Assembly: GCA_031416075.1 (NCBI GenBank)
Contig: JANOSY010000088.1
Coordinates: 9,504-73,503 of the forward strand
DNA length: 64,000 nucleotides
Direction: 5' to 3'
Origin: Candidatus Tenderia sp.
Lineage (GTDB): Bacteria > Pseudomonadota > Gammaproteobacteria > Tenderiales > Tenderiaceae
The number at the start of each line of letters is the position of its first letter. Position 1 is the first letter of the stretch. The notes under the pieces are model-generated. The model saw only the letters and a list, made by a program, of their open reading frames with translations. It did no database searches and was not told where the DNA came from. Positions 15,151-63,771 of this stretch are shown here, in pieces. The position numbers were made by a program, and so were the translations under genes.

Positions 15151-15308
15151 AAAGTCAAAACATTAAGCAGGAAATGCGGCTATTATACAGCGACTTGCCC
15201 GCATCAGTAACCCCATGAAGTTACTTTTAATACAATCATTCTAAAAATATTTATGATTTAAAGCGGAAGTACTGGGGTAAGACCCAAAAACAGAGGATGA
15301 ACATAAAA

Positions 15309-15384: not shown

Positions 15385-15399
15385 TAAAGCTTAGGAATA

Positions 15400-15476
15400 T
15401 GGGGTGAACGATGGGGCTCGAACCCACGACAACCGGAATCACAATCCGGGACTCTACCAACTGAGCTACGCTCACC
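15400..15476 (-). tRNA. tRNA-His (GTG)
   Basis: G(-1)GTGAGCGTAGCTCAGTTGGTAGAGTCCCGGATTGTGATTCCGG…CGTTCACCCCA has an encoded extra 5' G and anticodon GUG. Confidence 0.9.
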
Positions 15477-15514
15477 ATAACGCAATAACTTACACTGTTT
15501 GGACGCTAGTGATA

Positions 15515-15591
15515 TGGTGCGCCCGGCAGGACTCGAACCTGCTACCCTCGGCTTAGAAGGCCGATGCTCTATCCAGATGAGCTACGGGCGC
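15515..15591 (-). tRNA. tRNA-Arg (TCT)
   Basis: GCGCCCGTAGCTCATCTGGATAGAGCATCGGCCTTCTAAGCCGAGGGTAGCAGGTTCGAGTCCTGCCGGGCGCACCA has anticodon UCU. Confidence 0.9.
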
Positions 15592-15653
15592 ATGGATCAC
15601 GACTCTACCACTGCATTCAACTAGGCCATTCATTCACAGTAGAAGCTGAAAAA

Positions 15654-15730
15654 TGGTCGGGGTAGGGGGATTCGAACTCCCGACATCCTGCTCCCAAAGC
15701 AGGCGCGCTACCAGGCTGCGCTATACCCCG
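15654..15730 (-). tRNA. tRNA-Pro (TGG)
   Basis: CGGGGTATAGCGCAGCCTGGTAGCGCGCCTGCTTTGGGAGCAGGATGTCGGGAGTTCGAATCCCCCCTACCCCGACCA has anticodon UGG. Confidence 0.9.
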
Positions 15731-38700: not shown

Positions 38701-39073
38701 AGGGCGCTGGCAGACATCGCTGCAATACGGTGCCAAGAGTGTTAAAGAGACCATCGACGGCAACGAACATAACCAGTTTGTTGACCTCAGCGGCATCGAG
38801 AGCCGTTATGATCTAACGCCAGAGTGGGACATCGGCCTGCATGGCAACATCCTGCACGCCTGGCAGCTCAACCAATATAACTACAACAGTGGTGTCTCGG
38901 TAGGCCACACCGTGGCCAAAAACATCTGGCTGAGCCTTGGCTACAACTTCAACGGCTTCCGCGACAGCGACTTTTCGCGCAGCAGCTATACCAGTCAGGG
39001 GCTGTTCCTCCGTTTCCGGATGAAATTTGACCAAACCACCGTGAAAGAGGCGATCCAGTGGGCCAGCCAATGA
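32777..39073 (+). CDS. giant (2098 aa) surface protein: N-terminal DUF11/Ig-like repeats, carboxypeptidase-regulatory-like domain, internal OmpA-like peptidoglycan-binding domain, C-terminal ~1000-aa beta-strand-rich (putative outer-membrane barrel) region
   Basis: DUF11 motif ATGDLIRYSVQVENSTATTLNDVVLTESLPHGF; CarbopepD-reg-like GVRIYMEDGRYAISDERGMFHFDNLTPGNHLVQLD. OmpA-like …GHSDSRD…NRRVELHIYS; C-terminus has alternating amphipathic strands ending …GLFLRFRMKF. Confidence 0.8.
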   Translation: MSCTVVRAITALCPGPLAGQRAPLHLYITTLLGFLVLLWSTTTLAVPPGTIISNVASINYTIGGLPGLPLSSNIDQFTVVAAANTVDGTMSVAAPGGNLYAGSPRATTITLNNTGTTLLNNQQLTITAPLNSQVTLTGSGVTLAASMSSSTTTTYIFNVADLPVAGSQDLQLVLTAAPTAVSRPQTFTVAHSVDGTTLQQQSLTLSALPRTAARLEILQHSLSNRALSAIVNSTLIRGESGTFTPIAPPTLPEAPDRLVTDSPITLEPANVFSNIQTLFIRVTDLDQNLDSTVQESLDITIKLPDRDDYVTLRILETGIATGIFSGYVTFEKNSATSSGALPVKSNSKLLVSYTDTIDGDDSVAETVLIDPYGVVFDSATGQPLDGYTVQMVNTDTGLPATVYGDDGVSSYPATVITGSPVTDSSGNLYSYNTGEYRFPLAPAGNYRLVVTSPSSAQYRWPSTQSTEQLHNLSRSNLAITLGSRGERFPLLPGPPLHIDIPVDPLTTQLYLQRSANRESVATGDLIRYSVQVENSTATTLNDVVLTESLPHGFRLEPGSINMDNNPQQPATIEPQGTTFTLNLGAMIAGERRQIRYVSAVGAARQGLASSSSHARANSGAANSNHARHDAMVFDELMRGRALLLGQVIINPTDNDPTPASGLKGVRIYMEDGRYAISDERGMFHFDNLTPGNHLVQLDTATLPDHYSLVMGDQDTRNAHSPSSQFIDLQGGTLWRTEFHVARKPTPTGALSLQLSNTAPDSQGNIPYQVTLENRGVSASNLRLTLMIPATTHYQPGSSHVGGHPVGDPDIVGNVLIYRLNNDHPSGGWQRQLHLTLQGDTGNSASGDSRELTTKASLQFDTPAQQNQRLPLLQHTFTLTTEQVKQGEQKVLAESLTLDNFNGSSNDLSEEHKTVVQQLAERWAGQDIHIHAIGHSDSRDIIQKEKEDQRLFANNQILSEYRAHEVANQLRQQLSLPANRISFESKGEDEPVASNATSAGRATNRRVELHIYSVISTTTPHIHGTATTSERLSSTITGLTPGEQPITTATVTTTTEYNSQWLASQTASIEWLLPQERPALPTTNIAIKHHSDQNVTLTLNGQPVAAMNFNGTLNNSHGAAVSHWAGVDLNEGDNLFHATISNAQGEFIQQLNRNLHYSSAPVRAEIVPTLSTLIADSITPPVIAVRLYDKDSHPIHAGMEIEYQISPPHQPAQESFNTDNMVAAPGRRHYATSDNDGLILIKLAATNSTDDLRLQLPLAHNRTVELKSRLQAKARDWILVGLAEGEAGFNSLSGNMEALDGNAAQDHLYQDQRIAFFAKGQVLGKWLLTLAYDSDKAQPQKQGNDPALFQAIDPGSYYTVYGDAGQNGFDAASSKKLYLKLERNAFYLLFGDYQTQLSETRLARYDRTLTGIKSRYQNEQYNLMLFISENSQSFAKDELRGQGSTGPYPLSRSNVALNSEKVVLEVRDRFRSEQIVSSTLLARHSDYDINYLEGNITFREPVFSTDANLNPQYIVIKYESYTGDSQTTIGGRAEVKVNDQLKIGVTQVSEGRATGDALLGAADLQYKFNDATTLRLETARSLIADEGSGNAYLAEVEHQTVNSSSKLYLLDNDTHFGLGQTNASENGMYKQGVETQLRASDNINIKGQLYRQESSLSHASRDLAEAQGEISRGTTRLRAGLREVQDQRGDNSQQQSEQLTTGISQQLLDSKVTLRADREINLNNGNDSIDFPDKTRLGADYHITQKISLFAEQEVANSDLRDTRQRRLGIKSNPWNGAEIYSGLSHSSSDNGTATSANVAARQRWQLNPQWSVDAGIEQSQTLSQNLNQNQSSGPTLSPPAATPFNLNSGFAIGSNEDFSAASLGVTYSDKGWLWSSRVESRTGDLSDRRRLATSVQTSPHNDLSMLASLNLLTSSSAQGEQQDSSTVQLGAAYRPSNSRWLLLDKLTLKKERHNNSTLDSSGWRIINLFNANYREGRWQTSLQYGAKSVKETIDGNEHNQFVDLSGIESRYDLTPEWDIGLHGNILHAWQLNQYNYNSGVSVGHTVAKNIWLSLGYNFNGFRDSDFSRSSYTSQGLFLRFRMKFDQTTVKEAIQWASQ

Positions 39074-39092: not shown

Positions 39093-42000
39093 ATGGACAG
39101 TACGATGAGATACGGACGTTTTATTCAGCTCTGCCTGCTGGCCACCCTGCTGCTGGTGGTACTTTTGCCTCGTCCAGGGGTAGCGGCCATCACCGCCACC
39201 ACCCTATTTGAAGGGTCAACGGATGGCGATGCCAGCGCTTATACTGGACCCTCACTCAGCCCGTCGGCCAACAACCTGATTCTCGTCTGGATAACCAATA
39301 CCCGCTCCTCCTCCCCCACCGTGCCCACCTTTACCGGTAACGGCCTCACCTGGGTGCAGGTCGCCACCGTCACCTGGGGCAGCAGCGGCTCCCCCACCGC
39401 ACGTACCACCCTGTTCCGGGCCATGGGATCCTCCCCCGCTACCGGGATCAACAGCATCGATTTTGCCGGCAATACCCAGACCGGCGTGGCGATGTCAATG
39501 ATCCAGTTCAACAACGTCGACATCACCGGCAGCAACGGTGCCAACGCCCTGGTTCAGAGTGTCACCGGCAGAACTGATAGCGCCTCCTCCACCGCCGGGC
39601 TGAGCCTCACCCTGGCAGCGCTGGGCAATGTTGCCAACGCCTCTGTGGGCGGCTTTTCCAACTTTATCAACTCCGCCACCTCCATCTCCCCAGGGTCCGG
39701 CTACACCGCCTCGTCCGGCACCACCTATCTGGCCCCCAGCATCAGCCTGCGCGCCGAGTGGAAGAGTGCGGGCAGCACCATCGTCAACGTCACACAGAGC
39801 GGTACCTCCCACATTGGCGGGATCGCCGTCGAACTCAAGGCCGACCTCTGTGCCGGCAATGTGGTCACCACCATCGCCAACAGTGGTGATGGCTCCCTGC
39901 GTGAATGTATCATCAAGGCCAACCTCAACCCCGGCACCACCATCACCTTCAACATTACCGCTGCGGCCAACCAATCTTCCGGTGCCAACTCATGGTGGCG
40001 TATCACCCCCACCACCGCGCTACCCACCATCACCGCTGCCAATACGGTGATTGATGCCACCACCCAGACCAGTAATCGTGGCAATACCAATACCCTCGGC
40101 CCGGAAGTTGAACTCAACGGTGCCACCGTCGGTGCCGGGGGGTGGGACGGTTTTGGTGTGGCTTCGCCAGCCACCGGAGTCATCATCCGCGGGTTCATCA
40201 TCAATCAGTGGTCAGGGTCAGGTATCTCACTCTGGAGCGGCAGCGGCACCATCAGGGGCAACTACATCGGTACCAACTACGCCGGTACCAGTGCCCTGGC
40301 CAATACCAGCTACGGCCTCTACCTCAATACCAATGGCAATACCGTCGGTGGCACCAGTGCTGCGGACCGTAACGTCATTGCCGGTAACGGCGGGCCTGGC
40401 ATCTACATTGTGAGCAACAGCAATACCGTGCAGGGCAACTACATCGGCGTCAACGCCAGTGCTGGGGCGATAGTTGCCAATAGTGGCCACGGCGTACAGA
40501 TACTCTCCGGTGCCACCGGCAATACCATTGGGGGCACAGCGGCGGGGGCAGGCAATGTGATTGCTGGCAACGGCGCTGATGGCATCAACCATAGTTCAAC
40601 AGGCAGCAATACCGTACAAGGCAACTACATCGGTACCAACGCCAGCAGCGCGACACTCTCTAATGGTGGCAATGGCATTGCCATCTCTGCCGGCACACTC
40701 AATGTGGGCAACGCCTCTGAATCCCAATCAAACATTATTGGCCCCAACAGTGGTGCGGGCATCAACCTGGCGGGCGGAACAGTGAATCTGGCAGGCAGTG
40801 TCACCGTGCGTGGCAACATGGCCCTGGCCAGCGGCACACTCGCCATGGGCAGCGCCACACTCAACCTCTCCGGTAACTGGAGCCGTACCAGCACCACCGT
40901 CACAACCGGCACCTCCACCGTGGTGCTCAACGGCACTGCCCTGCAGAGCCTGACCATGAACGGCAGTAACTTCAATAATCTGACCATCACCAACGGCAGT
41001 GTTGCAGGTATCAGTTTTAATGATGGTTTTAACGCCGCCAACATCACCAATACCACCCCCGCCTCCCGGCTGACCTTTAAGGCGGGCGCAACCTACACCC
41101 TCTCCGGCACCCTGACACTGGTCGGCAGCAGTGGCAACCAGATCATTCTGCTCAGCGACTCCCCCGGCACCCGCTTTACCCTGAACCCAACTGCTGGCGC
41201 GCAGAGTGTCAACTATGTCAACGTCAAGGATTCACAGGCCTCAACCAACAACATCACCGCCGATAACTCCACCAACAGTGGTGGCAATGATGATGCCGAG
41301 GCCGCACCACGCTGGGTCTTTAATGCCCCCGATACCACGCCGCCCGCCAGGATCATCGACCTGACGGTCACCTCCTCCACCACCTCATCCATCACCCTGA
41401 ACTGGACTTCACCGGGAGATGACAATAACAGTGGCACGGCTACCAGCTATGACCTGCGTTACTCCACCTCGCCCATCACGGCGGGCAACTGGGCCAGCGC
41501 CACACAGGCCGTTGGCGAACCAACACCCTTGGTGGCCGGTAGCAGCCAATCATTTAGCGTGACCGGCCTGGCCGCTGCCACCACCTACTACTTTGTAATG
41601 ACCACCAGCGATGAGGTCCCCAATACCTCCGCCCTATCTGACTCAGCGGTTGGCACCACCGGCGGCGGTGGTGGCGGCAATGTGAGCTACTACGCCAAAC
41701 GCAGTAACAGTGTCTCCATCGCCTCCGGCATCACCAGCAACAGCGGCTCCTGCGGCACAGATCCAACCGCCTACTACATTGAAGAGCTGTCAAAAAACAT
41801 CAGCGACATGTGTGTCACAGCAAATGCCTACCGCTGGGAGCAGTTGACGGCCGGCAGCTACTCGGACCACTACTTCAACACCGCCTATGTGGCCAATACC
41901 ACCGTTACCGGCGTCTCTTATCAGGTCACCATCCGCGACAGCGGAACAGTAGGTTTCCAGCTTTTTTATGTCACCTCCGGCGGTACCAAAACCTATCTTG

Positions 42001-44711
42001 GCACTGAAGTCACCCAGGTAAACAGTGGCATAGAAACCAATAACTACATCCTTAACCTCTCCGGCCAGTCTGGCACCATCCCCACCGGGGCAAAACTTGG
42101 GTTTCGTACCCGTGGTATCTCTGTCAGCCCCAGCTTCAGGATCTATGTGGGTAATCTGGATGGCAGGACACCCAGCAACCTCTCCGGTCATCTAATCGTC
42201 AACGAGGCCGTGGGCAGCAGCGATACCACCGCCCCGGCCAGTGTCACGCTCTCTACCGGTACCATCACCAACAACTCCGTGCTGCTGAACTGGGTATCAC
42301 CGGGGGATGATGGCAATACCGGCACCGCCCAGATCTACGACATCCGTTACTCCACCGCCGCCATCACGGCGGGCAACTGGGCCAGCGCCACCCAGGTAGG
42401 CGGGGAACCAACACCTCTGGTGGCGGGCACTGCCCAGACCTATACCGTGACCGGGCTGGCCCCCAATACCCTCTACTACTTTGCCATCAAAACCGGCGAC
42501 GAGACACCCAACTGGTCAGCGGTCTCCAACTCCCCCAGCGCCACCACCTACGATCCACCGGTGGGTGGCTTTAGTGTCGATAATGTGATCCCCGCCACCC
42601 AGATCAGCCAGTCCACCAACGGTTCAGGCATCATCACCATCAACTGGAAGGGGCGCGACAATCAGGCCAATAACGTCACACTCAAAACCTTTCAGTACAG
42701 CGTGGACGGTGGGGCTAGCTGGAACGCCCCCACCAACGGCGACGCCTCCGCCGCACTCTCCGCCACCTGGAGCAACAACGGCGGCAGTGGCTGGACCACC
42801 GCCACCACCTTGGCTGCCGCTCCTGTCAACAGCTTCACCTTCAATACCAAACATGCCAATGTCTCGGGGTTAAACGGGGTGGACCAGAACGATGTACGGG
42901 TCCGGTTTCTATTACGTGATGCCACTATGGATAGCCAGAGCTATGTCACCTCGACCGATTTTCGTATCGATGCCCTTGCCCCTACCGCGACCATTGGCAG
43001 CGCCATTTACGATGCTGCCAACGACCTGCTGACCATCACCGGCACCAACTTCACCACCATTGCGGCGGCCAGCACCGACATCAAAGCCTATGTCGACTGG
43101 AGCAAATTTGTCTGGGACATCAACGGCGACAACGCCACCACCACCGACATCAGCTTTGTGCTGGGTGACATCACCAGCCTGATCATCACCGACGATACCA
43201 CCATCACCCTGCAGTTCAGTGCCGCCAAAGGGATCGCCATCGAAGCCACCGCCGGCTACAGCACCACAGGCGGGGTCGACACCCTCGATGTTGCCGCCGG
43301 TTTTGCCCGAGACGACTACGGCAATGCCGCCACCACCGATGCGGTGGCCAACGGGCCACTCGTTACCACCTCGGTCTCAGGGATACTCTACGATACCGAC
43401 CGCACCACCAGCCTCGGTTTTGGCATGACGGTACGGCTACTCATCAACGGCGCCAGCATGGGCTCCACCACCACCGACGGCAGTGGTCGCTATACCTTCT
43501 GGAATAACGTCAGTGCCGGCAATGCCATTCTGGTCTACATCGACAATGGTGCCAGCACCGCCATCAGCGCCACCGTTACCGCCAACGCCAGCCTCTCGGA
43601 CTTTGATCTCTACGCCAGCCATCTGGTGGCCCGCCACGATAATGGGGGCGCACTCAGCAACGCCAACCTGGGAAGTGCCAAGGGGGCGTATGTCGACACC
43701 GATATTGTTTACTCCGTCACCGGCAGCGCGTTAACCGTCAGTGGCAGCGCCACCCGGCTACACATCCCGGCGGGCAAAAGTTTTACCCCGGAGGGCAACG
43801 TCACCACCCCGGCCATGAGTAATCTTGGCACCTTTGTCGGCGGCAGTGGTGCCATTACCATCAATGGCAACCTGAGTAACAGCGGCAGTTATACCGCCAG
43901 CAGCGCCACCACCACTGTTGCTGCTGACTTCAGCAACAGCGGTACCTTTACAGCCGCAGGCGGTACCGTGCTGCTTAACGGTATCAATCAAAACATCACG
44001 GGGACCACTACCTTCTTCAACCTGACCAAAACCGTGGCCACCGCCGACACCCTATTTTTCAGCGTCGGCTCCACCACCACCGTCACGGGTAGCGCCACCC
44101 TGCAGGGGGCATCGGGCCAGCCACTGAGTCTGCTCTCGATCACCCCCGGCAGCCGCTGGAACTTCAACATCGGCAGCAGCGCCACTAAGTCCTTCAGTTT
44201 TCTGAATGTGATCGACAGTGACGCCTCAGGCTCTGCCGCTGCCAAAAAACCGCTCATCGCCCAACCCAGCAACTCTACCGACAGCGGCAACAATGTGGAC
44301 TGGTTTGGCCTGCCCTCCATCTCGGTGATCAAATCCAGTACCCTGATATCCGACCCCGTTAACGGCACCACCAGCCCGCTGCATATCCCGGGGGCAATCC
44401 TTAACTATCAGATCCTCACCACCAACTCTGGCAACGGCTCACCCGATACCAATACCGTGGTGGTAACCGATGCACTGGACTCCAGCAAGCTTGAGTTTGA
44501 TGTCACCACCGGCATCACCTTTACCGCCAATACCTCGGGACTGACACTGGGCACAGTGAGTTATGCCCATACCGCCACCCCCACCACCTATACCTACACC
44601 CCCACCGGCCCCTACGACGCCAATGTGGCGGGCATCAAGATCACCACCAGCGGTACGTTTGCCAGCGCCGGTGCCAGCTTTACCCTCAACTTCCGCGTCC
44701 GCATAAAATAG
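39093..44711 (+). CDS. giant (1872 aa) secreted protein with parallel beta-helix repeats, two fibronectin-III-like modules, a carboxypeptidase-regulatory-like domain and a C-terminal DUF11 domain
   Basis: Signal peptide (…IQLCLLATLLLVVLLPRPGVAA). Repeated GNYIGTNxxGT…NVIAGNG (PbH1-like) units. Twice …ITLNWTSPGDDNNSGTATSYDLRYS…TTYYF… (FN3-like). C-terminal SPLHIPGAILNYQILTTNSGNGSPDTNTVVVTDALDSS. Confidence 0.8.
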   Translation: MDSTMRYGRFIQLCLLATLLLVVLLPRPGVAAITATTLFEGSTDGDASAYTGPSLSPSANNLILVWITNTRSSSPTVPTFTGNGLTWVQVATVTWGSSGSPTARTTLFRAMGSSPATGINSIDFAGNTQTGVAMSMIQFNNVDITGSNGANALVQSVTGRTDSASSTAGLSLTLAALGNVANASVGGFSNFINSATSISPGSGYTASSGTTYLAPSISLRAEWKSAGSTIVNVTQSGTSHIGGIAVELKADLCAGNVVTTIANSGDGSLRECIIKANLNPGTTITFNITAAANQSSGANSWWRITPTTALPTITAANTVIDATTQTSNRGNTNTLGPEVELNGATVGAGGWDGFGVASPATGVIIRGFIINQWSGSGISLWSGSGTIRGNYIGTNYAGTSALANTSYGLYLNTNGNTVGGTSAADRNVIAGNGGPGIYIVSNSNTVQGNYIGVNASAGAIVANSGHGVQILSGATGNTIGGTAAGAGNVIAGNGADGINHSSTGSNTVQGNYIGTNASSATLSNGGNGIAISAGTLNVGNASESQSNIIGPNSGAGINLAGGTVNLAGSVTVRGNMALASGTLAMGSATLNLSGNWSRTSTTVTTGTSTVVLNGTALQSLTMNGSNFNNLTITNGSVAGISFNDGFNAANITNTTPASRLTFKAGATYTLSGTLTLVGSSGNQIILLSDSPGTRFTLNPTAGAQSVNYVNVKDSQASTNNITADNSTNSGGNDDAEAAPRWVFNAPDTTPPARIIDLTVTSSTTSSITLNWTSPGDDNNSGTATSYDLRYSTSPITAGNWASATQAVGEPTPLVAGSSQSFSVTGLAAATTYYFVMTTSDEVPNTSALSDSAVGTTGGGGGGNVSYYAKRSNSVSIASGITSNSGSCGTDPTAYYIEELSKNISDMCVTANAYRWEQLTAGSYSDHYFNTAYVANTTVTGVSYQVTIRDSGTVGFQLFYVTSGGTKTYLGTEVTQVNSGIETNNYILNLSGQSGTIPTGAKLGFRTRGISVSPSFRIYVGNLDGRTPSNLSGHLIVNEAVGSSDTTAPASVTLSTGTITNNSVLLNWVSPGDDGNTGTAQIYDIRYSTAAITAGNWASATQVGGEPTPLVAGTAQTYTVTGLAPNTLYYFAIKTGDETPNWSAVSNSPSATTYDPPVGGFSVDNVIPATQISQSTNGSGIITINWKGRDNQANNVTLKTFQYSVDGGASWNAPTNGDASAALSATWSNNGGSGWTTATTLAAAPVNSFTFNTKHANVSGLNGVDQNDVRVRFLLRDATMDSQSYVTSTDFRIDALAPTATIGSAIYDAANDLLTITGTNFTTIAAASTDIKAYVDWSKFVWDINGDNATTTDISFVLGDITSLIITDDTTITLQFSAAKGIAIEATAGYSTTGGVDTLDVAAGFARDDYGNAATTDAVANGPLVTTSVSGILYDTDRTTSLGFGMTVRLLINGASMGSTTTDGSGRYTFWNNVSAGNAILVYIDNGASTAISATVTANASLSDFDLYASHLVARHDNGGALSNANLGSAKGAYVDTDIVYSVTGSALTVSGSATRLHIPAGKSFTPEGNVTTPAMSNLGTFVGGSGAITINGNLSNSGSYTASSATTTVAADFSNSGTFTAAGGTVLLNGINQNITGTTTFFNLTKTVATADTLFFSVGSTTTVTGSATLQGASGQPLSLLSITPGSRWNFNIGSSATKSFSFLNVIDSDASGSAAAKKPLIAQPSNSTDSGNNVDWFGLPSISVIKSSTLISDPVNGTTSPLHIPGAILNYQILTTNSGNGSPDTNTVVVTDALDSSKLEFDVTTGITFTANTSGLTLGTVSYAHTATPTTYTYTPTGPYDANVAGIKITTSGTFASAGASFTLNFRVRIK

Positions 44712-52715: not shown

Positions 52716-54806
52716 TTAAACCTCTTCCGTGACGGCCTTGATGCTTAAACGGATACGACCCTGCTTATCCACCTCAAGCACTTTAACCTTAACCACTTCA
52801 CCTTCGGTAAGCTTATCAGCCACATTCTCCACACGCTCATTGGAAATCTGTGAGATGTGAACCAAGCCATCCTTGCCCGGAAGGATGGTGACAAAAGCAC
52901 CAAAGTCCATCAACTTGGCCACTTTACCATCGTAAATCTTGCCGACCTCAACATCAGCAACCAACTCAAGAATCCGCTGCTTCGCCGCCTCACCCGCCGC
53001 CCGGTCAACCGAGGCGACCTTAACGGTGCCATCATCATCCAGATCAATCGATGTGCCTGTCTCTTCGGTCAGTGCACGAATAGTTGCGCCCCCTTTACCA
53101 ATAACATCGCGGATACGGTCCGGATTAATCTTGAAGGTGATAATCCGTGGTGCATATTCAGACAACTCTTCACGAGGTGCAGTGATCGCTTTATCCATTT
53201 CACCCAGAATAAACAGACGGCCATCTTTTGCCTGAGAGAGTGCTGCCTGCATGATCTCACGGGTAATCCCGTCAATCTTGATATCCATCTGCAACGCAGT
53301 GATACCTGATGACGTACCGGCGACCTTAAAGTCCATATCACCCAGATGATCTTCATCACCCAGAATATCGCTCAACACGGCAAAACGGTCACCCTCTTTA
53401 ATCAGCCCCATCGCAATACCCGCTACCGGCGCTTTTAAAGGGATACCCGCATCCATCATCGCCAAACTACTGCCACAGACAGAGGCCATTGAACTGGAGC
53501 CGTTGGATTCAGTAATCTCAGAGACCACACGAACAACGTAAGGGTAGTTTGCCATATCAGGCATCACCGCTTGAACACCACGTTTGGCCAGACGGCCATG
53601 GCCGATCTCACGACGTTTAGGGCTACCCACCATGCCGGTTTCACCAACACTGTAAGGGGGGAAGTTGTAGTGGAACATAAACGGGTCTTTACGCTCACCT
53701 TCGATGGCATCGATCATCTGCGCATCTTTGCCAGTACCGAGGGTGGTCACCACCAGCGCCTGTGTTTCACCACGGGTAAAGAGTGCTGAACCATGTGTAC
53801 GTGGCAACACACCCACACGAATGGTGATCGGACGAACAGTTTTGGTATCACGTCCATCGATACGCGGCTGACCATCAATAACACGGCCACGCACCACCTT
53901 GCTCTCAAGCACGCCAATCATCTCACCTACGTCAGCCGCGCTCCACTCAGGTGTCTCACCACCACACAACGTAGTAACCGCCTGACTGCGAATATCATCC
54001 AGCGCCGCATACCGATCCTGCTTTACCTTAATCTGATAGGCTTCGTTCAACTGTGTCGCAACAACACCGCTCACCGCGGACTCCAGCGCGCTGTTCTTGA
54101 CAGGCGACTGCCACACCCAAGCCTCAACACCCACTTCATCGCACAGCTCACGAATAGCCTTGATCACAACACACATCTGTTCATGACCAAACATCACCGA
54201 ATCCAACATCACCTGTTCTGACAGCTCATGGGCTTCAGACTCCACCATCAATACCGCACCCTCAGTACCGGCAACCACCAGATCCAACTGCGAGGCCACC
54301 AGCTGAGACTTGCTCGGATTCAGCAAAAACTCACCATCGACATAACCAACACGGGCAGCACCGATCGGTCCCTTGAAAGGAACACCTGCCAGCATCAATG
54401 CCGCTGAAGCACCGATCAGCGAGGGAATATCAGGATCAATTTCAGCATCCAGTGAGACAACGGTGGCAACAATCTGGACTTCATTAGTGAAGCCGTCGGG
54501 AAACAGTGGACGTATCGGGCGATCAATCAGACGAGAAGTCAGTGTCTCTTTTTCCGTAGGACGCCCTTCGCGCTTAAAAAACCCGCCAGGAATCTTACCC
54601 GCTGCGTAGGTTCTCTCTTGATAGTTGACAGTTAGTGGAAAGAAGTCACGCCCCGGAACAACCTCTTTACGTGCAACGGCAGTCACCAGAACGGTCGTAT
54701 CTCCCATGCTGCACATCACAGCACCACTAGCCTGTCTGGCAATCTCACCAGTCTCTATCGTGACAGTGTGATTACCATACTGAAAAACCTTTTTAATGGG
54801 TTTCAT
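52716..54806 (-). CDS. pnp: polynucleotide phosphorylase
   Basis: [31 protein letters not shown]… with two RNase PH domains plus KH and S1 (696 aa). Confidence 0.95.
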
Positions 54807-54894
54807 TAACTATCCTTAAAATTTCTTATGGGGTATTTAACAAAGATCCAAAAATGATCGGATTCTGGATCAACGCACTGCGGGCATAGCAACA

Positions 54895-54944
54895 GAAACA
54901 GACCGCCCCGCACATCCTTCGATGTTACGCAGGGCAGTCTGTTT
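54895..54944 (-). promoter_or_regulatory. rpsO terminator / pnp leader stem-loop (probable RNase III-processed autoregulatory hairpin)
   Basis: On the minus strand an AAACAGACTGCCC…GGGCGGTCTGTTT long imperfect hairpin lies between the rpsO stop and the pnp start, as in the E. coli rpsO-pnp leader. Confidence 0.4.
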
Positions 54945-54964
54945 AATCCAGCTCGGCATTCCGC

Positions 54965-55234
54965 TTAGCGGCGCAGACCAAGACGGGTGATCAATTCACG
55001 GTAACGATCCTGATCTTTCTTTTTCAGGTAGTCGAGCAACTTACGACGCTGACTAACCATTCTCAAAAGACCCTGACGTGAGTGATGGTCATGAGAGTGT
55101 TTCTTAAAATGACCAGAAAGCTGATCGATACGAGCGCTCAACAGCGCAACCTGAACTTCAGGAGATCCAGTATCCCCTGTGGCACGCTGAAAATCACCAA
55201 CGACTTTCTGCTTAGCTTCTGCATTCAAAGACAT
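54965..55234 (-). CDS. rpsO: 30S ribosomal protein S15
   Basis: [39 protein letters not shown]…RLGLRR is 89 aa with a GGGAGA SD. The track ORF starts at an upstream TTG. Confidence 0.95.
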
Positions 55235-55353
55235 GTTATCTCCCAAATAGACACTACTAACTCAATAAGCGGCGTATTTTACAACCGCATCAAGCCCGGT
55301 ACAAGCACGGAATTGGCCAATTCTCCTCTTAAAAGGCAGATTAGGCAATAATC

Positions 55354-56271
55354 CTAGCAATTCACCAGACGTTTTGGAGCAACCCTGCCATCATCCAGGA
55401 TGTGGCCGATCCCCAGAAATCCATCTTTATGACCATACAACCTAACCAACCCTGTCATCGGTGCCTTCGGCACCAGCACAGCTTGGCCTCGTTTGACATA
55501 AAATGCCATGTCATCGGTCAGTGCGATCGATGGCCACTGCGATAAGGCGCTATCCATCGGCAGCAAACGTCTATCAACACTATCAAACCCAGCAGCTTCA
55601 ATCGCATCAGCCAACTGCTCAAGAGTCATGCACTGATCAAGCTGATGGCCACTCACCTGGGTACGGCGTAGCACTGTTACGTGTGCACCACACCCCAAAA
55701 GCTCACCAATATCTTCGGACAGTGTACGAATGTAGGTCCCTTTCGAACACCTGACATGCAGATCAATTTCATCGCTACTTTGGCGCAGTAGATCAATTTG
55801 ATAAATAGTCACTTGCCGCGGCTGACGCTCCACCTCCAACCCTTGGTGGGCCAGTTTGTAAAGCGGCTGGCCATTCACCTTAAGCGCTGAGTGCATGGGC
55901 GGTACCTGCTGAATAATACCCGTCAACTGCTCCAGCACTTTACGCAATGTCTGTTCGCTGATATATGGCACGGGGCGGGTCTCAATGACCTCTCCCTCAA
56001 TATCCGCAGTATTGGTCTTTTGCCCTAACTTGAGGGTGACAAAATAACTCTTGTCAGACTCCAGCAGATATCCCGAGACCTTTGTCGCCTCGCCCAAACA
56101 GATGGGCAATACACCGGTGGCAATAGGGTCAAGGCTGCCCGTATGGCCCGCTTTATTGGCATTAAACAGTCGTTTGACCTTCTGCAGCGCCACGTTGGAA
56201 GTCATGCCCGCCGGTTTGTCGAGCAAAAAAATGCCATGGATATCTCTACCCGGTATGCGCCGTTTTTGCAC
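55354..56271 (-). CDS. truB: tRNA pseudouridine(55) synthase
   Basis: …GIFLLDKPAGMTSNVALQKVKRLFNANKAGHTGSLDPIATGVLPICLGEATK…. Confidence 0.95.
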   Translation of the reverse strand: MQKRRIPGRDIHGIFLLDKPAGMTSNVALQKVKRLFNANKAGHTGSLDPIATGVLPICLGEATKVSGYLLESDKSYFVTLKLGQKTNTADIEGEVIETRPVPYISEQTLRKVLEQLTGIIQQVPPMHSALKVNGQPLYKLAHQGLEVERQPRQVTIYQIDLLRQSSDEIDLHVRCSKGTYIRTLSEDIGELLGCGAHVTVLRRTQVSGHQLDQCMTLEQLADAIEAAGFDSVDRRLLPMDSALSQWPSIALTDDMAFYVKRGQAVLVPKAPMTGLVRLYGHKDGFLGIGHILDDGRVAPKRLVNC

Positions 56272-56292
56272 CCGTGCTAGACCGCGAACAGA

Positions 56293-56658
56293 CTATTTTT
56301 CGCCACGATCAGAAGCCAATGCGGCATTGATCAAGGCGTTGATATTGGCACCATTTTCCACGGAAGCGTCATAGACAAATACCAGCTGCGGTGTAATCCG
56401 CAATTTCATCCGTTTGCCCAACTCACGACGCAGAAAACCTGCCGCATGATTCAGTGCCGCCAAGACATCCTCCACGCCATTGTCCGCATTAAACATGGTG
56501 ATGTAGACCTTGGCATGGGCCATATCACGGGTCACATCCACGCCGGAGACTGTCACCAGTCCCACACGTGGATCGTTGAGCTGAAACTGAATCAGATCCG
56601 CCAACTCACGCTGTATTTGTGAGCCAACCCGCTGGCTACGACTAAATTCTTTGGCCAT
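56293..56658 (-). CDS. rbfA: ribosome-binding factor A
   Basis: MAKEFSRSQRVGSQIQRELADLIQ… is a 121-aa KH-like RbfA. Confidence 0.9.
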   Translation of the reverse strand: MAKEFSRSQRVGSQIQRELADLIQFQLNDPRVGLVTVSGVDVTRDMAHAKVYITMFNADNGVEDVLAALNHAAGFLRRELGKRMKLRITPQLVFVYDASVENGANINALINAALASDRGEK

Positions 56659-56678
56659 GACGCTCTACCGTAGTGAAA

Positions 56679-59234
56679 TCAAGTGATGAACTTGGCAACT
56701 TCGGTACGCTCGTAGACCTCAATCTGGTCTCCTGGGCGTACATCGTTGTAGTCCTTAACGCCGATACCACATTCGGTACCAGAGCGCACTTCACCCACAT
56801 CATCCTTAAAGCGACGCAGCGACTCAAGCGCACCTTCATAGATAACCACATTGTCACGCAATACGCGGATCGGATTATTACGTTTGACCACACCATCAAT
56901 AACCAGACAGCCAGCAATGGCACCGATCTTGGGTGAGCGGAAGACATCACGAACCTCTGCCAGCCCCACAATCACTTCACGAATTTCTGGTGACAACATA
57001 CCGGACAGCGCATGTTTAACGTCATCGATAATGTCGTAGATTACGCTGTAGTAACGTATATCAATACCCGTCTCTTGGCAGATGCGTTTGGCAGCGCTGT
57101 CAGCACGGACATTAAAGCCCATGACAATCGCCTGCGATGCAGCCGCCAGATTGACATCAGATTCGGTAATACCACCCACGCCGCTAGCCAGAATTTTAAC
57201 CCTGACTTCATCGGTAGAAAGTTTGGTCAGTGCATCACGCAACGCCTCGGCACTACCCTGTACGTCGGTCTTGATCACCAGGTTAAGGGCGCTGATCTTG
57301 CCATCTTCCATTTGTGAGAAGACATCTTCAAGCTTGGAGGCCTGCTGGCGAGCCAGTTTCACATCACGGAACTTGCCTTGACGGAACAGGGCAATTTCAC
57401 GTGCCTTACGCTCATCCGAAATAACAGCTGCGTTGTCACCCGCATCCGGCGTACCGGAAAGACCCAACACCTGCACTGGAATTGAAGGGCCGGCAGAATC
57501 GACCGGCAGACCATTCTCATCAAACAGGGCGCGAACACGACCATACTCCTTACCCACCAGCAATACGTCACCCTTGTTCAGCGTGCCGCTCTGCACCAAT
57601 ACTGTTGCCACAGCACCGCGCCCTTTATCCAGGCTCGATTCAACAACAATACCTGTGGCATGGCCATCTTTGACCGCTTTCAGCTCCATCACTTCCGCTT
57701 GCAACAGAATAGCTTCGAGCAGCTGATCAATACCGGCACCGGTCTTGGCGGAGACGTGAACAAACATCGAATCACCACCCCACTCTTCAGGAATCACCCC
57801 TTGAGCAACCAGCTCCTGCTTAACACGATCAGGATCAGCGTCAGGCTTATCAATCTTATTCACCGCCACCAGCAACGGCACTTCTGCTGCACGGGCATGC
57901 TGAATCGCTTCAATCGTCTGTGGCATCACGCCATCATCCGCCGCCACGACCAAAATAACGATATCGGTAGCCTGGGCACCACGGGCACGCATCGCCGTAA
58001 AGGCGGCATGGCCCGGAGTATCAAGGAAAGTGACCATACCGCGATCAGTCTCTACATGATAGGCACCGATATGCTGGGTAATACCACCCGCCTCACCCGC
58101 TGCCACTTTGGCACGACGAATGTGGTCGAGCAGTGACGTCTTACCATGGTCAACATGACCCATGATGGTGACAACCGGGGCGCGACTGATCAGCTCACCC
58201 TTATGACCGGTCTGCACTTCAAGCAGCTCAGCCTCAAGTGCGTCTTCACGCATCAGCTTAGGTGTATGACCCATCTCTTCCACTACAATGGCAGCGGTAT
58301 CCTGGTCGATCACCTGATTGATGGTCACCATGGTGCCCATCTTCATCATCACCTTGATGACTTCAGCAGCCTTGACCGACATCTTCTGCGCCAGCTCGGC
58401 CACAGTAATGGTCTCAGGGATGGCAACTTCATGAGTCACGGGTGCCTGAGGCTTCTGGAAACCATGTGGCCCCGCAGCAACCACCACGCGACCGCGGCTT
58501 GGCGAGTGCGATTTTTTCTTACGGCGGCCAGCCTTGTCGGCGGAGACATGCAACTCTTCACGATCAAAGCCACCTTTTTTGCCTTTACCACCAAACGGCT
58601 CATCAGCAACGCCTTTGCCACGCTTTTTAGGCTTTTTGTCCTTACCGGCATCACTAACAACCACGGCTTCCGGTGTCACCGGTGGTGCCACCGGGCGCAC
58701 AGTTGCCTCGGCTGCCGCCTGCTGAATCATCTGTTCAGCGGCCCGCCTTGCGGCAATCTCCATGTCGGCACGACGCTGATCTTCCAAGGCCTGCAATCGC
58801 ATGGCCTCTTCTGCCGCCTGACGTGCGACCTCCTCGGCACGCGCCTCATTAAGCTCAGGACTCTCTGGCACAACCTCTTCTTCCGGAGACTCTTCTTCAG
58901 ATTCATTGGCAACATCAGTGGGACGCTTAACGTAAGTGCGGCGCTTACGCACCTCAACGCTCACGGTTTTGGCGCGCCCCTGGGTCCCTGACTGCTTAAG
59001 CTCACTGACAGTCTTGCGTTTCAAGGTGATCTTCTTGGGAGATGCCGCCTCCTCAGCGATTTCAACCGCATCGCCCCCTCTACGCAGATGCTTGAGCAGC
59101 TGCATCTTGTCCTCATCACTGATGGTAGCGTCGGCGCTCGGTACCGGCACGCCCGCTTCATCAAGCTGGACAAGCAAGCGATCGACTGGAATGCCAACCG
59201 CATCTGCCAACTGCTTTACTGTTACTTCTGACAT
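56679..59234 (-). CDS. infB: translation initiation factor IF-2
   Basis: 851 aa with a G-domain ([26 protein letters not shown]) and the C-terminal fMet-tRNA binding domain. Confidence 0.95.
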
Positions 59235-59279
59235 TGCTGCCTACCCCTCTTACTCAAGTGCTCTTAATCCTTGGTGCTA

Positions 59280-60764
59280 TTACGCAAACCAAGGGGCACG
59301 AGCGGTCATAATCAATTGACTGGCACGCTCTTCATCCAAGCCAACCACATCACCCAGTTCATCCAGCGACTGTTCCGCCAGATCTTCCATAGTGATTACA
59401 CCCTTGGCTGCCAACGCATAGGCCAGGGACTCATCCATACCTTCCATATCCAAGAGATCCTTGGCAGGCTGCTTGTGGGCATGTTTCTCTTCACCAGCGA
59501 TTGCCTTGGTCAGCAATACATCACGGGCGCGATTACGCAGCTCTTCCACCATCTCTTCGTCAAACTCTTCAATCTGCAGCATCTCCTGCACAGGCACATA
59601 AGCCACCTCTTCAATCGAGCTGAACCCCTCCTGCACCAGAATAGAAGCAACCTCTTCATCCACATCGAGCTGCTCTTTAAACAGATTGAGCACAGCCACT
59701 GACTCTTGTTCGCTCTTTTTCTCAGCATCGGTTTCAGTCATCACATTCAACTCCCAACCAGTCAACTGACTGGCAAGGCGCACATTTTGACCGCCACGAC
59801 CGATGGCTTGCGACAGGTTCTCTTCTGAGACGGCAACATCCATGGTGTGACTCTCTTCATCAACAACAATAGAGACAACCTCAGCCGGTGACATCGCATT
59901 AATCACAAACTGCGCCACATTATCATCATACAAAATAATGTCGACACGCTCACCGCCCAGCTCATTGGAGACCGCCTGCACACGCGAACCACGCATGCCC
60001 ACACAGGCACCCACTGGATCGATACGCTGATCGTTACTCTTGACGGCAATTTTGGCACGCACACCTGGATCACGGGCTGCGGCCCTGATCTCAATCAACC
60101 CTTCACCCGCCTCCGGCACCTCAAGCTTAAACAGCTCAATTAGCAGCTCAGGGGCCGTACGACTGATAAACAGCTGTGGACCACGTGGCTCGGAACGGAC
60201 GTCGCGCAGATAACCACGCACGCGATCACCCGTGCGTAACGATTCACGTGGAATCATATCTTCACGGGCGATCAGCGCTTCAACATTACCACCCAGATCC
60301 AGGATGACACTGCCACGATCGTTACGTTTGACAATCCCCATCACCAGCTCGCCGATGCGCCCTTTATAGGCGTCCACCACCTGCATTCTTTCAGCCTCGC
60401 GCACCTTCTGCACGATCACCTGCTTGGCAGTCTGGGCAGAAATACGACCAAACTCAACCGACTCAAGTGGCTCTTCTATATAGTCACCGGCATTGACATT
60501 AGGATTCTTGACCCGCGCATCTGCCAGCATGATCTGGTAATCAGTTGACTCAAACGCCTCCTCATCCTCCAGCACCAACCAGCGACGAAAGGTCTCGTTA
60601 TTCCCAGTATCACGGTTGATAGTGACCCGCACATCAACCTCGTCTTCATAACGTTTTTTGGTGGCTGTTGCCAACGCAGCCTCTATCGCCCCAAAAATGA
60701 TGCCTTTATCGACACCCTTTTCGTTAGATACAGCCTCTACTACCAATAAGATCTCTTTGCTCAT
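59280..60764 (-). CDS. nusA: transcription termination/antitermination factor NusA
   Basis: [37 protein letters not shown]… with S1, KH and acidic repeat domains (494 aa). Confidence 0.95.
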
Positions 60765-60799
60765 AGCTCAGCCTCTATTCAGCACTGCCTTGCAAATCC

Positions 60800-61261
60800 T
60801 CAGAGTTCAGGCACAAGACGTGCCTTCTCCACATCATCAAACGAAAACTGCTTAGTCTCACCTTCAAACTCAACGGTGATCAGACCAGACGCAATTCCCA
60901 ATAATTTGGCGGTCATCTTACGACGCCCATCAAGCGGTGTCGCCAGCTGCACCTTAATCTCACGGCCGGTAAACCGCTCATAATCTTTTTCACTAAACAA
61001 CAGACGATCCAGACCAGGCGACGAAACTTCCAGCGAATAACGTCCAGCAATGGGGTCTTCCACATCAAACACAGCACTGACCTGGCGACTCACCTTCTCA
61101 CAATCACTGACCGTTACACCGCCATCAGGGTTGTCTATATATATCCGCAACAACGAATGGTGTCCCTGCGGCAGGTGCTCGACACCTGCAAGCTCATACC
61201 CCAGCCCCGCCACAACGGGTCCAATCAGATTCAACAACTTTACTGGGGCCTGTCGGGCCAT
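60800..61261 (-). CDS. rimP: ribosome maturation factor RimP
   Basis: MARQAPVKLLNLIGPVVAGLGYELAGVEH… Start was set at the internal ATG. The track ORF extends to a TTG at 61306. Confidence 0.85.
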   Translation of the reverse strand: MARQAPVKLLNLIGPVVAGLGYELAGVEHLPQGHHSLLRIYIDNPDGGVTVSDCEKVSRQVSAVFDVEDPIAGRYSLEVSSPGLDRLLFSEKDYERFTGREIKVQLATPLDGRRKMTAKLLGIASGLITVEFEGETKQFSFDDVEKARLVPEL

Positions 61262-61537
61262 GAGGTCCACCTTAAAACAAAAAATGGGCCGTGAGCCCAT
61301 TTTCAAAATCCAGAAAATTCGCGCCTAACAAAAAGGCCCACCTTCGGGGCCTTGGCAGCAAGCAGACAACTACGCCAGAGCAGATGCCGCCTACCTCGAT
61401 CACGCACCCTTCTGGTGCCAGACCTTAACAAAAAGAACGGCCAATATCAATACTTCATACCCGGCCAAGCGGGCATAACAACAGACCTGAAACAGAACAG
61501 CCGACATCTAGGTCGGCTGTATAATTTCAACTAAATT

Positions 61538-61614
<77 letters not shown>

Positions 61615-61773: not shown

Positions 61774-62718
61774 TCACTGCCGCTCTTTCCAGGAGGCTGG
61801 CAATGAACTGATAGTCAGCTCGCGCCCCTCTGAAAGTAGGTACTCCGCAAATACCTTGGCCACCACAGAAGGTTTTTTACCCAAGGGGTAACAGAGATAC
61901 CACTCGTCATCGATAGGGAAGCCCTCTACGTCCAGCACCACTAGCTCCCCCGTATTAATTTCATGCACTAACGCATAAATGGAGAGCATCGAAATACCCA
62001 GCTCACCAATCACTGCCTGCTTGATCGCCTCATTACTTCCCAGCGCCATGCTGACCTTAAAAGCAAAGTCACGACTGCGTCCGAGACGGTCCATCGTCAG
62101 GAAAGTACCGCAGCCAGGCTCCCGTGCCAGGAAGTTTTCATCCGCCAGGGCCTTAAGCGGTATATTCTTTTTTCCTGCCAGCGGGTGGTTTGGAGAGGCA
62201 AGAATCACCAGCGGGTTGGTCAAAAAGGGGATGGCATGAATACCAGGGTCAGACGGCGTCTGGCCAACAATATAGATGTCGTCCAAGTTCTCCGCCAACC
62301 GCTCCAGGATGTGCTGACGATTATTCACAACCAGCGACACATTAATGCCAGGGTATTTTTTATGAAAATCTCCCAGAATGCGCGGTGCAAAATACTCTGT
62401 TGTTGTCACCCCGGAGATGCGCAGATCACCCTGCTTGACACCTTTGATATCTGAAACCGTCATCTGGAACTCATCCAACGCAGTAAACAGCGACTTGCAG
62501 GTTTTAAGCAGCTCCCCCCCTACCGCCGTTAGCGCAATTCGCTTCCCCACCTGCTCGAACAGTGACATACCAACAATACCGGTTAGTTTTTTCATCTGCA
62601 TGGAGAGTGTTGGCTGAGTAAGGTGCAGCTCTTCAGCCGCCACCGTAAAAGAACCGTTTCGCGCTATCGATTCAAATACTTGCAACTGACGAAACGTGGC
62701 ATTACGAATTTTGATCAT
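61774..62718 (-). CDS. LysR-family transcriptional regulator, CbbR-like
   Basis: The N-terminal HTH FRQLQVFESIARNGSFTVAAEELHLTQPTLSMQMKKLTGIVGMSLFEQVGKRI is very close to CbbR (…AAEELHLTQPAVSMQVKQLE…). It is 314 aa. Confidence 0.8.
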   Translation of the reverse strand: MIKIRNATFRQLQVFESIARNGSFTVAAEELHLTQPTLSMQMKKLTGIVGMSLFEQVGKRIALTAVGGELLKTCKSLFTALDEFQMTVSDIKGVKQGDLRISGVTTTEYFAPRILGDFHKKYPGINVSLVVNNRQHILERLAENLDDIYIVGQTPSDPGIHAIPFLTNPLVILASPNHPLAGKKNIPLKALADENFLAREPGCGTFLTMDRLGRSRDFAFKVSMALGSNEAIKQAVIGELGISMLSIYALVHEINTGELVVLDVEGFPIDDEWYLCYPLGKKPSVVAKVFAEYLLSEGRELTISSLPASWKERQ

Positions 62719-62840
62719 GTTATAAAAACCCTACTAAATAGACTATAATCTATGCTGATTATAAGATATTTTTATTATCATTGATACAAGAAGCCGTTCA
62801 TAATCCACTCCAGGTTGATGACATAGTCAACTCTCCTTAG

Positions 62841-62912
62841 TGCGTACGGGGCCTGCCTTCCTCCCCCCCTCCCCCCCCAATAGGGCAGCCCACCCCGTAC
62901 GCGCCTTTTTTA
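62841..62912 (+). ncRNA. C-tract hairpin element 1 (candidate small RNA / intrinsic terminator-like repeat)
   Basis: GCGTACGGGGCCTGCC-[TTCCTCCCCCCCTCCCCCCCCAATAG]-GGCAGCCCACCCCGTACGC is an imperfect inverted repeat with a C7-T-C8 loop, followed by TTTTTTATT. Confidence 0.35.
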
Positions 62913-63104
62913 TTCAATGATACCCGCTTTGAAATCAAAAACATAAAACAGTCAAGCACCCTGCTTCAGACTATCTGAAATAGTGCTCTGCCACGCACCT
63001 ATTGTCTTATAGGTAAACATCTATCATGTTAATAAGAAATCAGTGCTAGTCATTATAGTGACTATAGGAGATACTGCTACAAAGTTGAGCTGATCACTCA
63101 ACTT

Positions 63105-63176
63105 TGTGTGTATGGGGACTTGCCTTTCCCCTCCCCTCCCCCTAAAAGGTGAAGGCTCCATACACACTGTTTTTAA
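63105..63176 (+). ncRNA. C-tract hairpin element 2 (paralog of element 1)
   Basis: GTGTGTATGGGGACTTGCCTT-[TCCCCTCCCCTCCCCCTAAAAGGTG]-AAGGCTCCATACACAC followed by TGTTTTTAAT. A perfect palindrome AAAGTTGAG-N8-CTCAACTTT lies immediately upstream at 63081-63106. Confidence 0.35.
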
Positions 63177-63324
63177 TCTCTATTTTCCCTCACATCTACC
63201 AGCTCATCCCCAGTCATTAAAGATGCTTCTGCTACAACACCAACTGCAGATTTATAATCCAACCTGATAATAGCGCCATGTAGCGGTCTTTCACATTGGT
63301 CGGCTGACAATTTTTAGTCAATAA

Positions 63325-63350
63325 AAAGGCAGGGATCACCTGCCTTTTTT
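63325..63350 (-). terminator. rho-independent terminator downstream of sspB (bidirectional shape)
   Basis: AAAGGCAGG-gatcac-CCTGCCTTT hairpin flanked by A-run and T-run. Confidence 0.6.
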
Positions 63351-63354
63351 GTCT

Positions 63355-63771
63355 CTATTTTACTACCCGCAGACTGGGGCGCCCTTTGGGTGGCTGAGGC
63401 GGCTCATCACCACCGCCTGATGGCGGCGCGCTGTCTGGGGCGTCACTCTCATCCACCTCCTCCTCAGAAAAGACCATGCCACGCCCGTTTTCTTTGGCAT
63501 AGATGGCCAGCACTGCCAGGGGTGGCAGACTCACATCCATGGATACACCGCTAAAACGGGCGCTGAACATCACCCACTCATTGGTCAACTCCAGGCCACG
63601 CACCGCCTGAGGATTAATATTCAGGATTATTTTGCCATCTTCAATGTATTGGGTGGGCACGGTCACGTTTGCCATCCCGGCATTCACTAACATGTAGGGG
63701 GTTAAACCACTGTCAACTATCCAGTCGTAAATGGCACGGATTAGATAAGGGCGTGAAGAGTTCAAGGTCAA
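63355..63771 (-). CDS. sspB: ClpXP specificity-enhancing factor (stringent starvation protein B)
   Basis: …PYLIRAIYDWIVDSGLTPYMLVNAG…QYIEDGKIILNI… and the C-terminal ClpX-binding tail …GRPSLRVVK. Confidence 0.9.
   Translation of the reverse strand: MTLNSSRPYLIRAIYDWIVDSGLTPYMLVNAGMANVTVPTQYIEDGKIILNINPQAVRGLELTNEWVMFSARFSGVSMDVSLPPLAVLAIYAKENGRGMVFSEEEVDESDAPDSAPPSGGGDEPPQPPKGRPSLRVVK

Follow-up and report, generated by a model that had tools for sequence, protein, structure and literature searches.

Candidate sister small RNA genes with C-rich loops beside a CbbR-related regulator gene in Candidatus Tenderia

Two hairpin units between a LysR-type regulator gene and sspB

We focused on the 636 bp intergenic region at positions 62719-63354 of a 64,000-nucleotide stretch of Candidatus Tenderia sp. 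DNA, hereafter the window. The region separates a LysR-type regulator gene from sspB. It contains two homologous units of ~100 nt, both on the plus strand (~62811-62912 and 63082-63175). Each has a 5' hairpin, then a long GC-rich terminator hairpin with a C-rich loop of 17-23 nt, and then a T-run. We consider it likely that the two C-rich hairpins belong to sister genes for small regulatory RNAs (sRNAs), which would be activated by the neighbouring CbbR paralogue and would use their C-rich loops to pair with G-rich ribosome-binding sites. The argument draws on computed structure, covariation, conservation of promoters and operators, linkage to the regulator and the absence of dispersed copies. 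The genes and the parts of each unit are as follows.

61774-62718, minus strand: gene for a 314-aa LysR-type regulator, a CbbR paralogue proposed to activate the two RNAs
62811-62912, plus strand: sRNA1, ~100 nt, from its predicted 5' end
62814-62831, plus strand: 5' hairpin of sRNA1 (predicted fold)
between the 5' hairpin and the terminator hairpin, plus strand: CU-rich linker of sRNA1, CUCUCCUUA
62840-62904, plus strand: terminator hairpin of sRNA1; stem GTGCGTACGGGG (62840-62851) pairs with CCCCGTACGCGC (62893-62904)
62856-62878: C-rich loop of sRNA1, C7TC8 (C runs at 62863-62869 and 62871-62878)
62906-62911, plus strand: T6 of sRNA1
63082-63175, plus strand: sRNA2, ~94 nt, from its predicted 5' end
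63081-63105, plus strand: 5' hairpin of sRNA2, AAAGTTGAG-N7-CTCAACTTT, homologous to GTTGATGACATAGTCAAC of unit 1
63106-63167, plus strand: terminator hairpin of sRNA2; stem GTGTGTATGGGG (63106-63117) pairs with CTCCATACACAC (63156-63167)
within 63123-63143, plus strand: C-rich loop of sRNA2, C4TC4TC5
63170-63174, plus strand: T5 of sRNA2
63323-63350, minus strand: terminator of the convergent sspB gene, outside the RNA module and marking the end of the region
63355-63771, minus strand: sspB, identified by protein family scan

An earlier note on this DNA had described twin hairpins, C tracts and runs of five to six T residues. All are present in the sequence. The units align across the 5' hairpin (GTTGA...TCAAC in both), the stem, the loop and the T-run. 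The 28-nt core is 82% identical between them and their starts are 267 nt apart. Judged by this alignment, they are true paralogues, beyond a similar design. The CU-rich linker CUCUCCUUA is found in sRNA1 only, not in sRNA2. Within the intergenic region, 22-nt windows with at least 15 C residues occur only in the two units; other such windows occur elsewhere in the 64 kb.

The plus strand folds with energies of -31.2 (unit 1) and -25.9 kcal/mol (unit 2). The corresponding z-scores are -6.2 and -4.1, and none of 200 shuffled sequences folded as well. Folds of the minus strand are weaker (z = -3.2 and -2.9), and the G-U pairs of the units fall on the plus strand only. In the predicted folds, the C motif is unpaired with a probability of 0.84 in sRNA1 and 0.76 in sRNA2. 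Each hairpin has the form of an intrinsic terminator, with a 12-bp GC-rich basal stem followed by T6 (unit 1) or T5 (unit 2). A simple terminator scan flagged neither unit, because its loop limit is 8 nt and the loops here are larger.

A 26-nt stretch at 63212-63237 is 73% identical to the promoter and 5' end of sRNA2 (63057-63082), with no hairpin or T-run after it. By its similarity, this stretch may be what is left of a third unit that has decayed.

Conservation, promoters and linkage to the regulator

Related loci were collected by way of the regulator. A genome-contig search with the regulator protein gave three close loci, and distant relatives came from contigs encoding homologues and from a metagenome scan. 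Briefly, loci were fetched with regulators of 82, 79, 76, 72, 70, 68, 65, 64, 63, 61 and 60% identity, together with 80 metagenome loci. All carriers of the units are uncultured metagenome-assembled genomes, the known hosts being Tenderia- or Chromatiaceae-like. Where the regulator is at least 60% identical (60-100%) and enough upstream DNA is present, as in ~20 loci, one or two units always lie on the divergent strand. A candidate sRNA gene thus adjoins the LysR-type gene across genomes. In most loci the first C-rich motif is 137-165 nt from the regulator start; the exceptions are L011 (101 nt) and L015 (314 nt). L009 was missed by a simple motif pattern, its loop reading CCTCCTCTCCTCCCCCCCCCC. 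In ~60 loci with a regulator no more than 59% identical, no motif was found 137-165 nt upstream and the covariance model matched none. The gene on the other side of the units varies, and includes DUF218, aminotransferase, FG-GAP protein, mutL, globin, peroxiredoxin, tilS, sspB and others. Since the units are linked to one regulator clade, the conserved module consists of the CbbR paralogue and the divergent C-rich RNA gene or genes.

A peroxiredoxin (AhpC/TSA) gene adjoins the module in three loci (L097 1518-2123, L098 1654-2142 and L099 1779-2240), and tilS is nearby in L016, L098 and L099. This neighbourhood may reflect lineage or may hint at function.

In L002 (uncultured Chromatiaceae) and L003 (Candidatus Tenderia sp.) the regulator is 93-94% identical, and both units lie between the regulator gene and sspB. 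The L001 contig, from Gammaproteobacteria bacterium ND3_Bin_17, shares 97% DNA identity with the window (L001 1-68 equates to 62814-62881) and ends inside the C-rich loop. Between the window, L002 and L003, 85% of the columns are invariant in sRNA1 and 68% in sRNA2, compared with 26% and 17% in the spacers. Compensatory changes occur in the stems, for instance in that of sRNA1, GTAC...GTAC in the window being GCAT...ATGC in L002 and L003.

We extracted 23 units across the loci. Most, including those of the window, are of one type (type A), with 105-118 nt from -10 box to T-run, a 5' hairpin, a short linker and a terminator hairpin of consensus GCGCAUGGG...CCCAUGCGC, the large loop of which carries the C-rich motif. 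Covariation was assessed in the 12-bp basal terminator stem of 19 type-A units. A standard pair is formed in 95.2% of the stem cells, compared with at most 66% when the partners are slid. Pairs changed on both sides number 8 of 12 (4.9 +/- 1.2 in shuffles) and doubly changed cells 31 (9.8 +/- 3.0 in shuffles). None of 500 shuffles reached the covariation score, a control that overstates significance because the sequences are related; the slid-partner control is therefore safer. The compensatory changes exceed both controls, as expected of a structured RNA under selection. In nearly every unit the C-rich motif is predicted to be unpaired (P = 0.7-1.0) and hence exposed in a loop.

The deep-branching loci L015, L016, L022, L057, L098, L099 and L100 have a separate plain terminator, with one to three copies of CCCCUCCCUUA or GAUCCUCCUUU in loops and linkers. 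The former motif occurs in L016, L022 and L057 and the latter in L100. In L100 (61% identity; 1752-2263, minus strand) there are two units of ~200-230 nt, each with GAUCCUCCUUU. Both motifs closely resemble the 3' end of 16S rRNA (...GAUCACCUCCUUA), the anti-Shine-Dalgarno sequence. The family thus shows sibling genes (one or two) and seed motifs (one to three) turning over in number while linkage to the regulator is fixed.

The predicted promoters and operators of the window are as follows.

62738-62753: operator 1, ATAGACTATAATCTAT (ATAGA-N6-TCTAT), predicted LysR recognition site between the divergent promoters; 10/10 match
62758-62763, minus strand: TATAAT adjoining operator 1, candidate -10 box for transcription of the regulator gene itself
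62769-62804, plus strand: sRNA1 promoter, with conserved TTTTTATTATCATTGATA (promoter-proximal regulator site / -35 region), an 11-12-nt spacer and the -10 box
62799-62804, plus strand: sRNA1 -10 box, CATAAT (promoter scan: TTATCA-18-CATAAT)
63009-63024: operator 2, ATAGGTAAACATCTAT, predicted; 9/10 match; followed by ATAAGAAA (63032-63039)
63070-63075, plus strand: sRNA2 -10 box, GATACT; CATACT in L002 and L003

All units follow one layout: ATAGA-N6-TCTAT, 24 nt, T(T/C)ATT(T/G)AT(A/G), 11 nt, and a -10 box (CATAAT, CATAGT, CATACT or GATACT). The best palindrome match lies exactly 61 nt before the -10 box in 19 of the 23 units, among them both units of the window. By comparison, a match of at least 8/10 anywhere occurs in only 14% of shuffled upstream regions. 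The LysR recognition site is classically ~65 nt upstream of the transcription start, and the predicted operator centre is ~65 nt upstream of the predicted sRNA start. Operator 2 is kept as ATAG-N8-CTAT in L002 and L003. The minus-strand TATAAT is kept as such in L002, L003, L007 and L019; it is plausibly the regulator's own -10 box, in the usual autoregulatory arrangement.

Two other palindromes had been put forward in the earlier note as LysR operators. The first, TAGTCA-N6-TGACTA (63047-63064), lies in the promoter spacer and was ruled out since it is not conserved in the closest relatives. The second, AAAGTTGAG/CTCAACTTT, exists but was slightly misplaced; it spans 63081-63105 with a spacer of 7 nt, not 8 nt. 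It is also the 5' hairpin of sRNA2 rather than an operator: L002 keeps the pairing by U-G wobble, which works on the plus strand only. The likely operators are instead ATAGACTATAATCTAT and ATAGGTAAACATCTAT, on the evidence of their fixed 61 nt distance from the -10 boxes. We rejected a sigma-54 reading of the GGCATAGT promoters, since GG and GC are wrongly spaced and the window units do not conserve these bases.

The origin of this layout is suggested by the regulator. Among NCBIfam models it matches CbbR best, with 235 bits where the cut-off is 450, and so below the equivalog level. A neighbour-joining tree groups the 17 sRNA-linked regulators in a single clade that contains no other locus and is sister to the RuBisCO-linked CbbRs. 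In 25 sister-clade loci (L023, L028 and 23 more; e.g. L023 1909-2500), the regulator is 50-59% identical and a RuBisCO large-subunit gene is divergent; hence, these are genuine CbbR loci. No member of the regulator's own clade has a RuBisCO gene next to it. ATAGA-N6-TCTAT with T(T/C)ATT(T/G)AT at +40, in a layout with TTATTTATGG, is present in 22 of 24 RuBisCO (cbbL) promoters divergent from sister-clade CbbRs. The AT-rich promoter block (TTTTTATTATCATTGATA in sRNA1) is conserved in all 23 units and in the cbbL promoters. Because the operator and promoter layout is common to both, the sRNA promoters are of the CbbR type, with an RNA gene in the place of the RuBisCO gene.

Proposed function and competing explanations

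Our preferred model is that the CbbR paralogue would bind both predicted operators and activate both sibling RNAs, presumably on sensing a metabolite, and would probably autoregulate through operator 1. Each RNA gene would have a weak sigma-70-type promoter, with a -35 region overlapped by the second conserved AT-rich site. The large apical loop of the terminator would display a C-rich sequence resembling the anti-Shine-Dalgarno sequence (CCUCCCCCCCUCCCCCCCC or CCCCUCCCCUCCCCC). The exposed loops, and in sRNA1 also the linker, could then pair with G-rich ribosome-binding sites of target mRNAs, which would block translation. Two short terminated transcripts with loops of this kind, leaving the divergent LysR region, had been suggested in the earlier note. 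We infer their transcription from the sequence, and the suggestion draws support from promoter conservation, from compensatory changes in the stems, from the conserved C-rich motifs being unpaired and from the strict linkage to the LysR-type gene.

Several points weigh against this model, besides the relatedness of the units used to assess covariation. Like transcription, regulator binding, the signal and the targets are predictions, and the 5' ends of the sRNAs were placed from the -10 boxes alone. When the 64-kb window was crudely scanned for G-rich ribosome-binding sites, internal start codons dominated the output, which was not interpretable, and no target emerged. A T-run ends all 23 units, but it is weak in L013_1 and L014_2. 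The -35 elements of the unit promoters are poor, as is expected for activator-dependent promoters. Finally, the search for further copies in related loci covered only the surroundings of the regulator gene, which leaves the 64-kb window as the one unbiased genome sample.

The RNAs could be real and controlled by the regulator yet act as sponges or decoys, binding or titrating a protein (for instance an RNA chaperone or a poly(C)-binding KH/S1 protein) or another RNA. Repetition of the motif one to three times per RNA, with two RNAs per locus, is a trait of protein-titrating RNAs, and a sponge would agree with the empty target scan. Conversely, the motif complements an extended Shine-Dalgarno sequence, and the CCCCUCCCUUA and GAUCCUCCUUU motifs of distant members nearly copy the 16S rRNA 3' end. 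In addition, the characterised sRNAs with C-rich loops in the papers that we found act by pairing (PMC3771888, PMC8295292). We regard a sponge as unlikely.

An element acting as DNA, in which the C/G tracts form an i-motif, G-quadruplex or cruciform, or slip, could modulate the divergent LysR promoter, possibly by phase variation. Tract lengths do differ between close relatives, being C7TC8 in the window, C5TC9 in L001 and C5TC8 in L002. Hence, either close strains differ in C-tract length or assemblies break at such hairpins. As to the idea that the C runs are slipped-strand sites, their length does vary; however, homopolymers are missing from distant family members, which carry CCCCUCCCUUA-type motifs instead, and slippage is thus not what the element is for. 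The G-U pairs fit the plus strand alone and the minus strand folds worse, every unit has its own 3' T-run, promoter and operator, and unit 2, at ~390 bp from the LysR start, is too distant to occlude the promoter. A DNA-level role is very improbable.

We give as little credence to the units being cis-acting leaders or attenuators, or plain terminators, of downstream or neighbouring genes. In L009 (aminotransferase) and L097 (peroxiredoxin) the next gene is downstream of the unit in the same orientation, as this would require. In the window and most other loci, however, the next gene is convergent or unrelated. Furthermore, the hairpin and U-run make up a full terminator and no upstream open reading frame (ORF) ends at the units.

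The units might instead be copies of a dispersed repeat, like a repetitive extragenic palindrome or a miniature inverted-repeat transposable element, as the earlier note offered as an alternative. Their similarity, at a distance of 267 nt, is what such a repeat would produce. Pattern, C-richness and covariance model searches found no further copy in the 64-kb window. The covariance model scores sRNA1 at 91 bits and sRNA2 at 71 bits and picks up members outside its training set, in L097 and L100. Over 553 kb it matched regulator-linked units only, and over the ~575 kb of related loci it detected no copy away from the same position by the same regulator. The units also have neither terminal inverted repeats nor target duplications, and their position is fixed relative to operator and promoter. 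We consider this origin highly improbable. Least credible of all is that the units encode small proteins; mechanical ORFs do overlap them (63106-63267, plus strand, and 62837-62959, minus strand), but the loop has 2-nt and 3-nt indels between close relatives, and the ORFs continue across the terminator and are not shared between units.

A regulatory sRNA pair under a CbbR paralogue raises a wider possibility, which we put forward tentatively. The CbbR paralogue and its C-rich sRNAs could be a previously unrecognised post-transcriptional branch of autotrophy and carbon-status control in Tenderia-like chemolithoautotrophic Gammaproteobacteria. A duplicated CbbR would have kept the cbbL-type operator and promoter to drive RNAs that mimic the 16S 3' end, so that a Calvin-cycle signal would throttle translation of mRNAs with G-rich Shine-Dalgarno sequences. 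The module hints that metabolite sensing of the CbbR type may reach translation control. If confirmed, it would add an RNA family with no Rfam entry. It would also illustrate cleanly how a transcription factor duplicate can keep the ancestral RuBisCO promoter architecture while the driven gene is swapped for a regulatory RNA. We know of no work on RNA regulation in the Candidatus Tenderia lineage; a concrete, testable regulator-operator-sRNA module is proposed here for these uncultured autotrophs and their relatives.

Further along the window, a tRNA-Met gene (61538-61614) is followed by rimP, nusA, an 851-aa ORF, truB and pnp over 52716-61306, all on the minus strand. By its position, the 851-aa ORF (56679-59234) may be infB. 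This is the classical metY-nusA-infB region; hence, the regulator-sRNA module sits between that region and sspB. In L013, rimP-nusA is also 3 kb from the regulator gene. Surface proteins are probably encoded by two very large adjacent ORFs, at 32777-39073 (2098 aa; OmpA, CarboxypepD_reg and DUF11) and 39093-44711 (1872 aa; fn3 and purple-acid-phosphatase-N). G-rich triplet repeats of the TGGGCGGCGGCGG type at 48039-48110 and ~48571 are possibly a glycine-rich protein segment or a simple repeat. Two minus-strand tRNA clusters, at 15066-15730 and 8231-8400, encode Leu-Lys-His-Arg-Pro and Asp-Val.

Comparison with known systems

The RNA family is absent from Rfam, while its design is well known. 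With Rfam 15 at gathering thresholds, only tRNAs pass in the whole window; at E<=10 over 62600-63450 there is nothing except terminator-like chance matches, and 12 related loci gave no match. Our literature search found no paper linking a CbbR-type regulator to an sRNA and none on sRNAs in Tenderia.

The closest arrangement is that of AbcR1/AbcR2 with VtlR/LsrB in Agrobacterium, Sinorhizobium and Brucella, where two homologous tandem sRNAs lie beside a LysR-type regulator gene. Of this pair, abcR1 adjoins the regulator gene; VtlR binds its promoter and activates it directly (PMC7486931). In both systems the siblings are not equivalent in pairing motifs, the difference here being the CU-rich linker of sRNA1. 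Conversely, there is no sequence or Rfam similarity, the host class is another, the regulator here is a CbbR paralogue, an operator is predicted at both RNAs and the seed lies in the terminator loop.

The terminator loop itself has a counterpart in RepG of Helicobacter pylori, the C/U-rich terminator-hairpin loop of which pairs with a G-rich mRNA leader (PMC8295292). A C-rich terminator loop is likewise the pairing site that we propose, although RepG is unrelated in sequence and is a single gene with no LysR partner. In Xanthomonas, the apical C-rich loops of sX13 repress mRNAs with G-rich motifs at the ribosome-binding site (PMC3771888). The loops of the units are of this kind, as are those of RsaE and 6C/B11, which share the design. 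In contrast to the units, sX13 has three loops with 4C/5C motifs and no known dedicated regulator adjoining it, and none of these families gave an Rfam match here.

Cuckoo RNAs have stems that co-vary around a conserved loop motif resembling the anti-Shine-Dalgarno sequence (CCUCCUCCC), with hairpin and copy number variable (PMC4615179). Variable but compensated stems with one such loop motif are thus common to our family and the Cuckoo / alpha-r14 / CcsR RNAs of Alphaproteobacteria, L016, L022 and L057 being most similar. The motif here is CCCCUCCC(UUA) or C tracts, and even the best Rfam score for L016, with the ar14 model, is 16.8 bits against a gathering score of 58.8. Cuckoo RNAs have two to four adjacent hairpins with CCUCCUCCC in each loop; the window units have one C-tract loop and no exact CCUCCUCCC. 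The genomic partner also differs, being a DUF1127 gene or none for Cuckoo RNAs and a LysR-type regulator here.

In Enterobacteria, GcvA-GcvB and OxyR-OxyS are cases of an sRNA gene divergent from the LysR-type regulator that controls it. GcvB and OxyS differ from the units in using G/U-rich or other seeds, in being single genes and in sequence. The nearest relatives of the promoters are those of divergent CbbR-cbbLS loci, with the same ATAGA-N6-TCTAT, 24 nt, T(T/C)ATT(T/G)AT layout and a regulator 50-59% identical. What differs is the driven gene, which here is a ~100-nt RNA and not RuBisCO.

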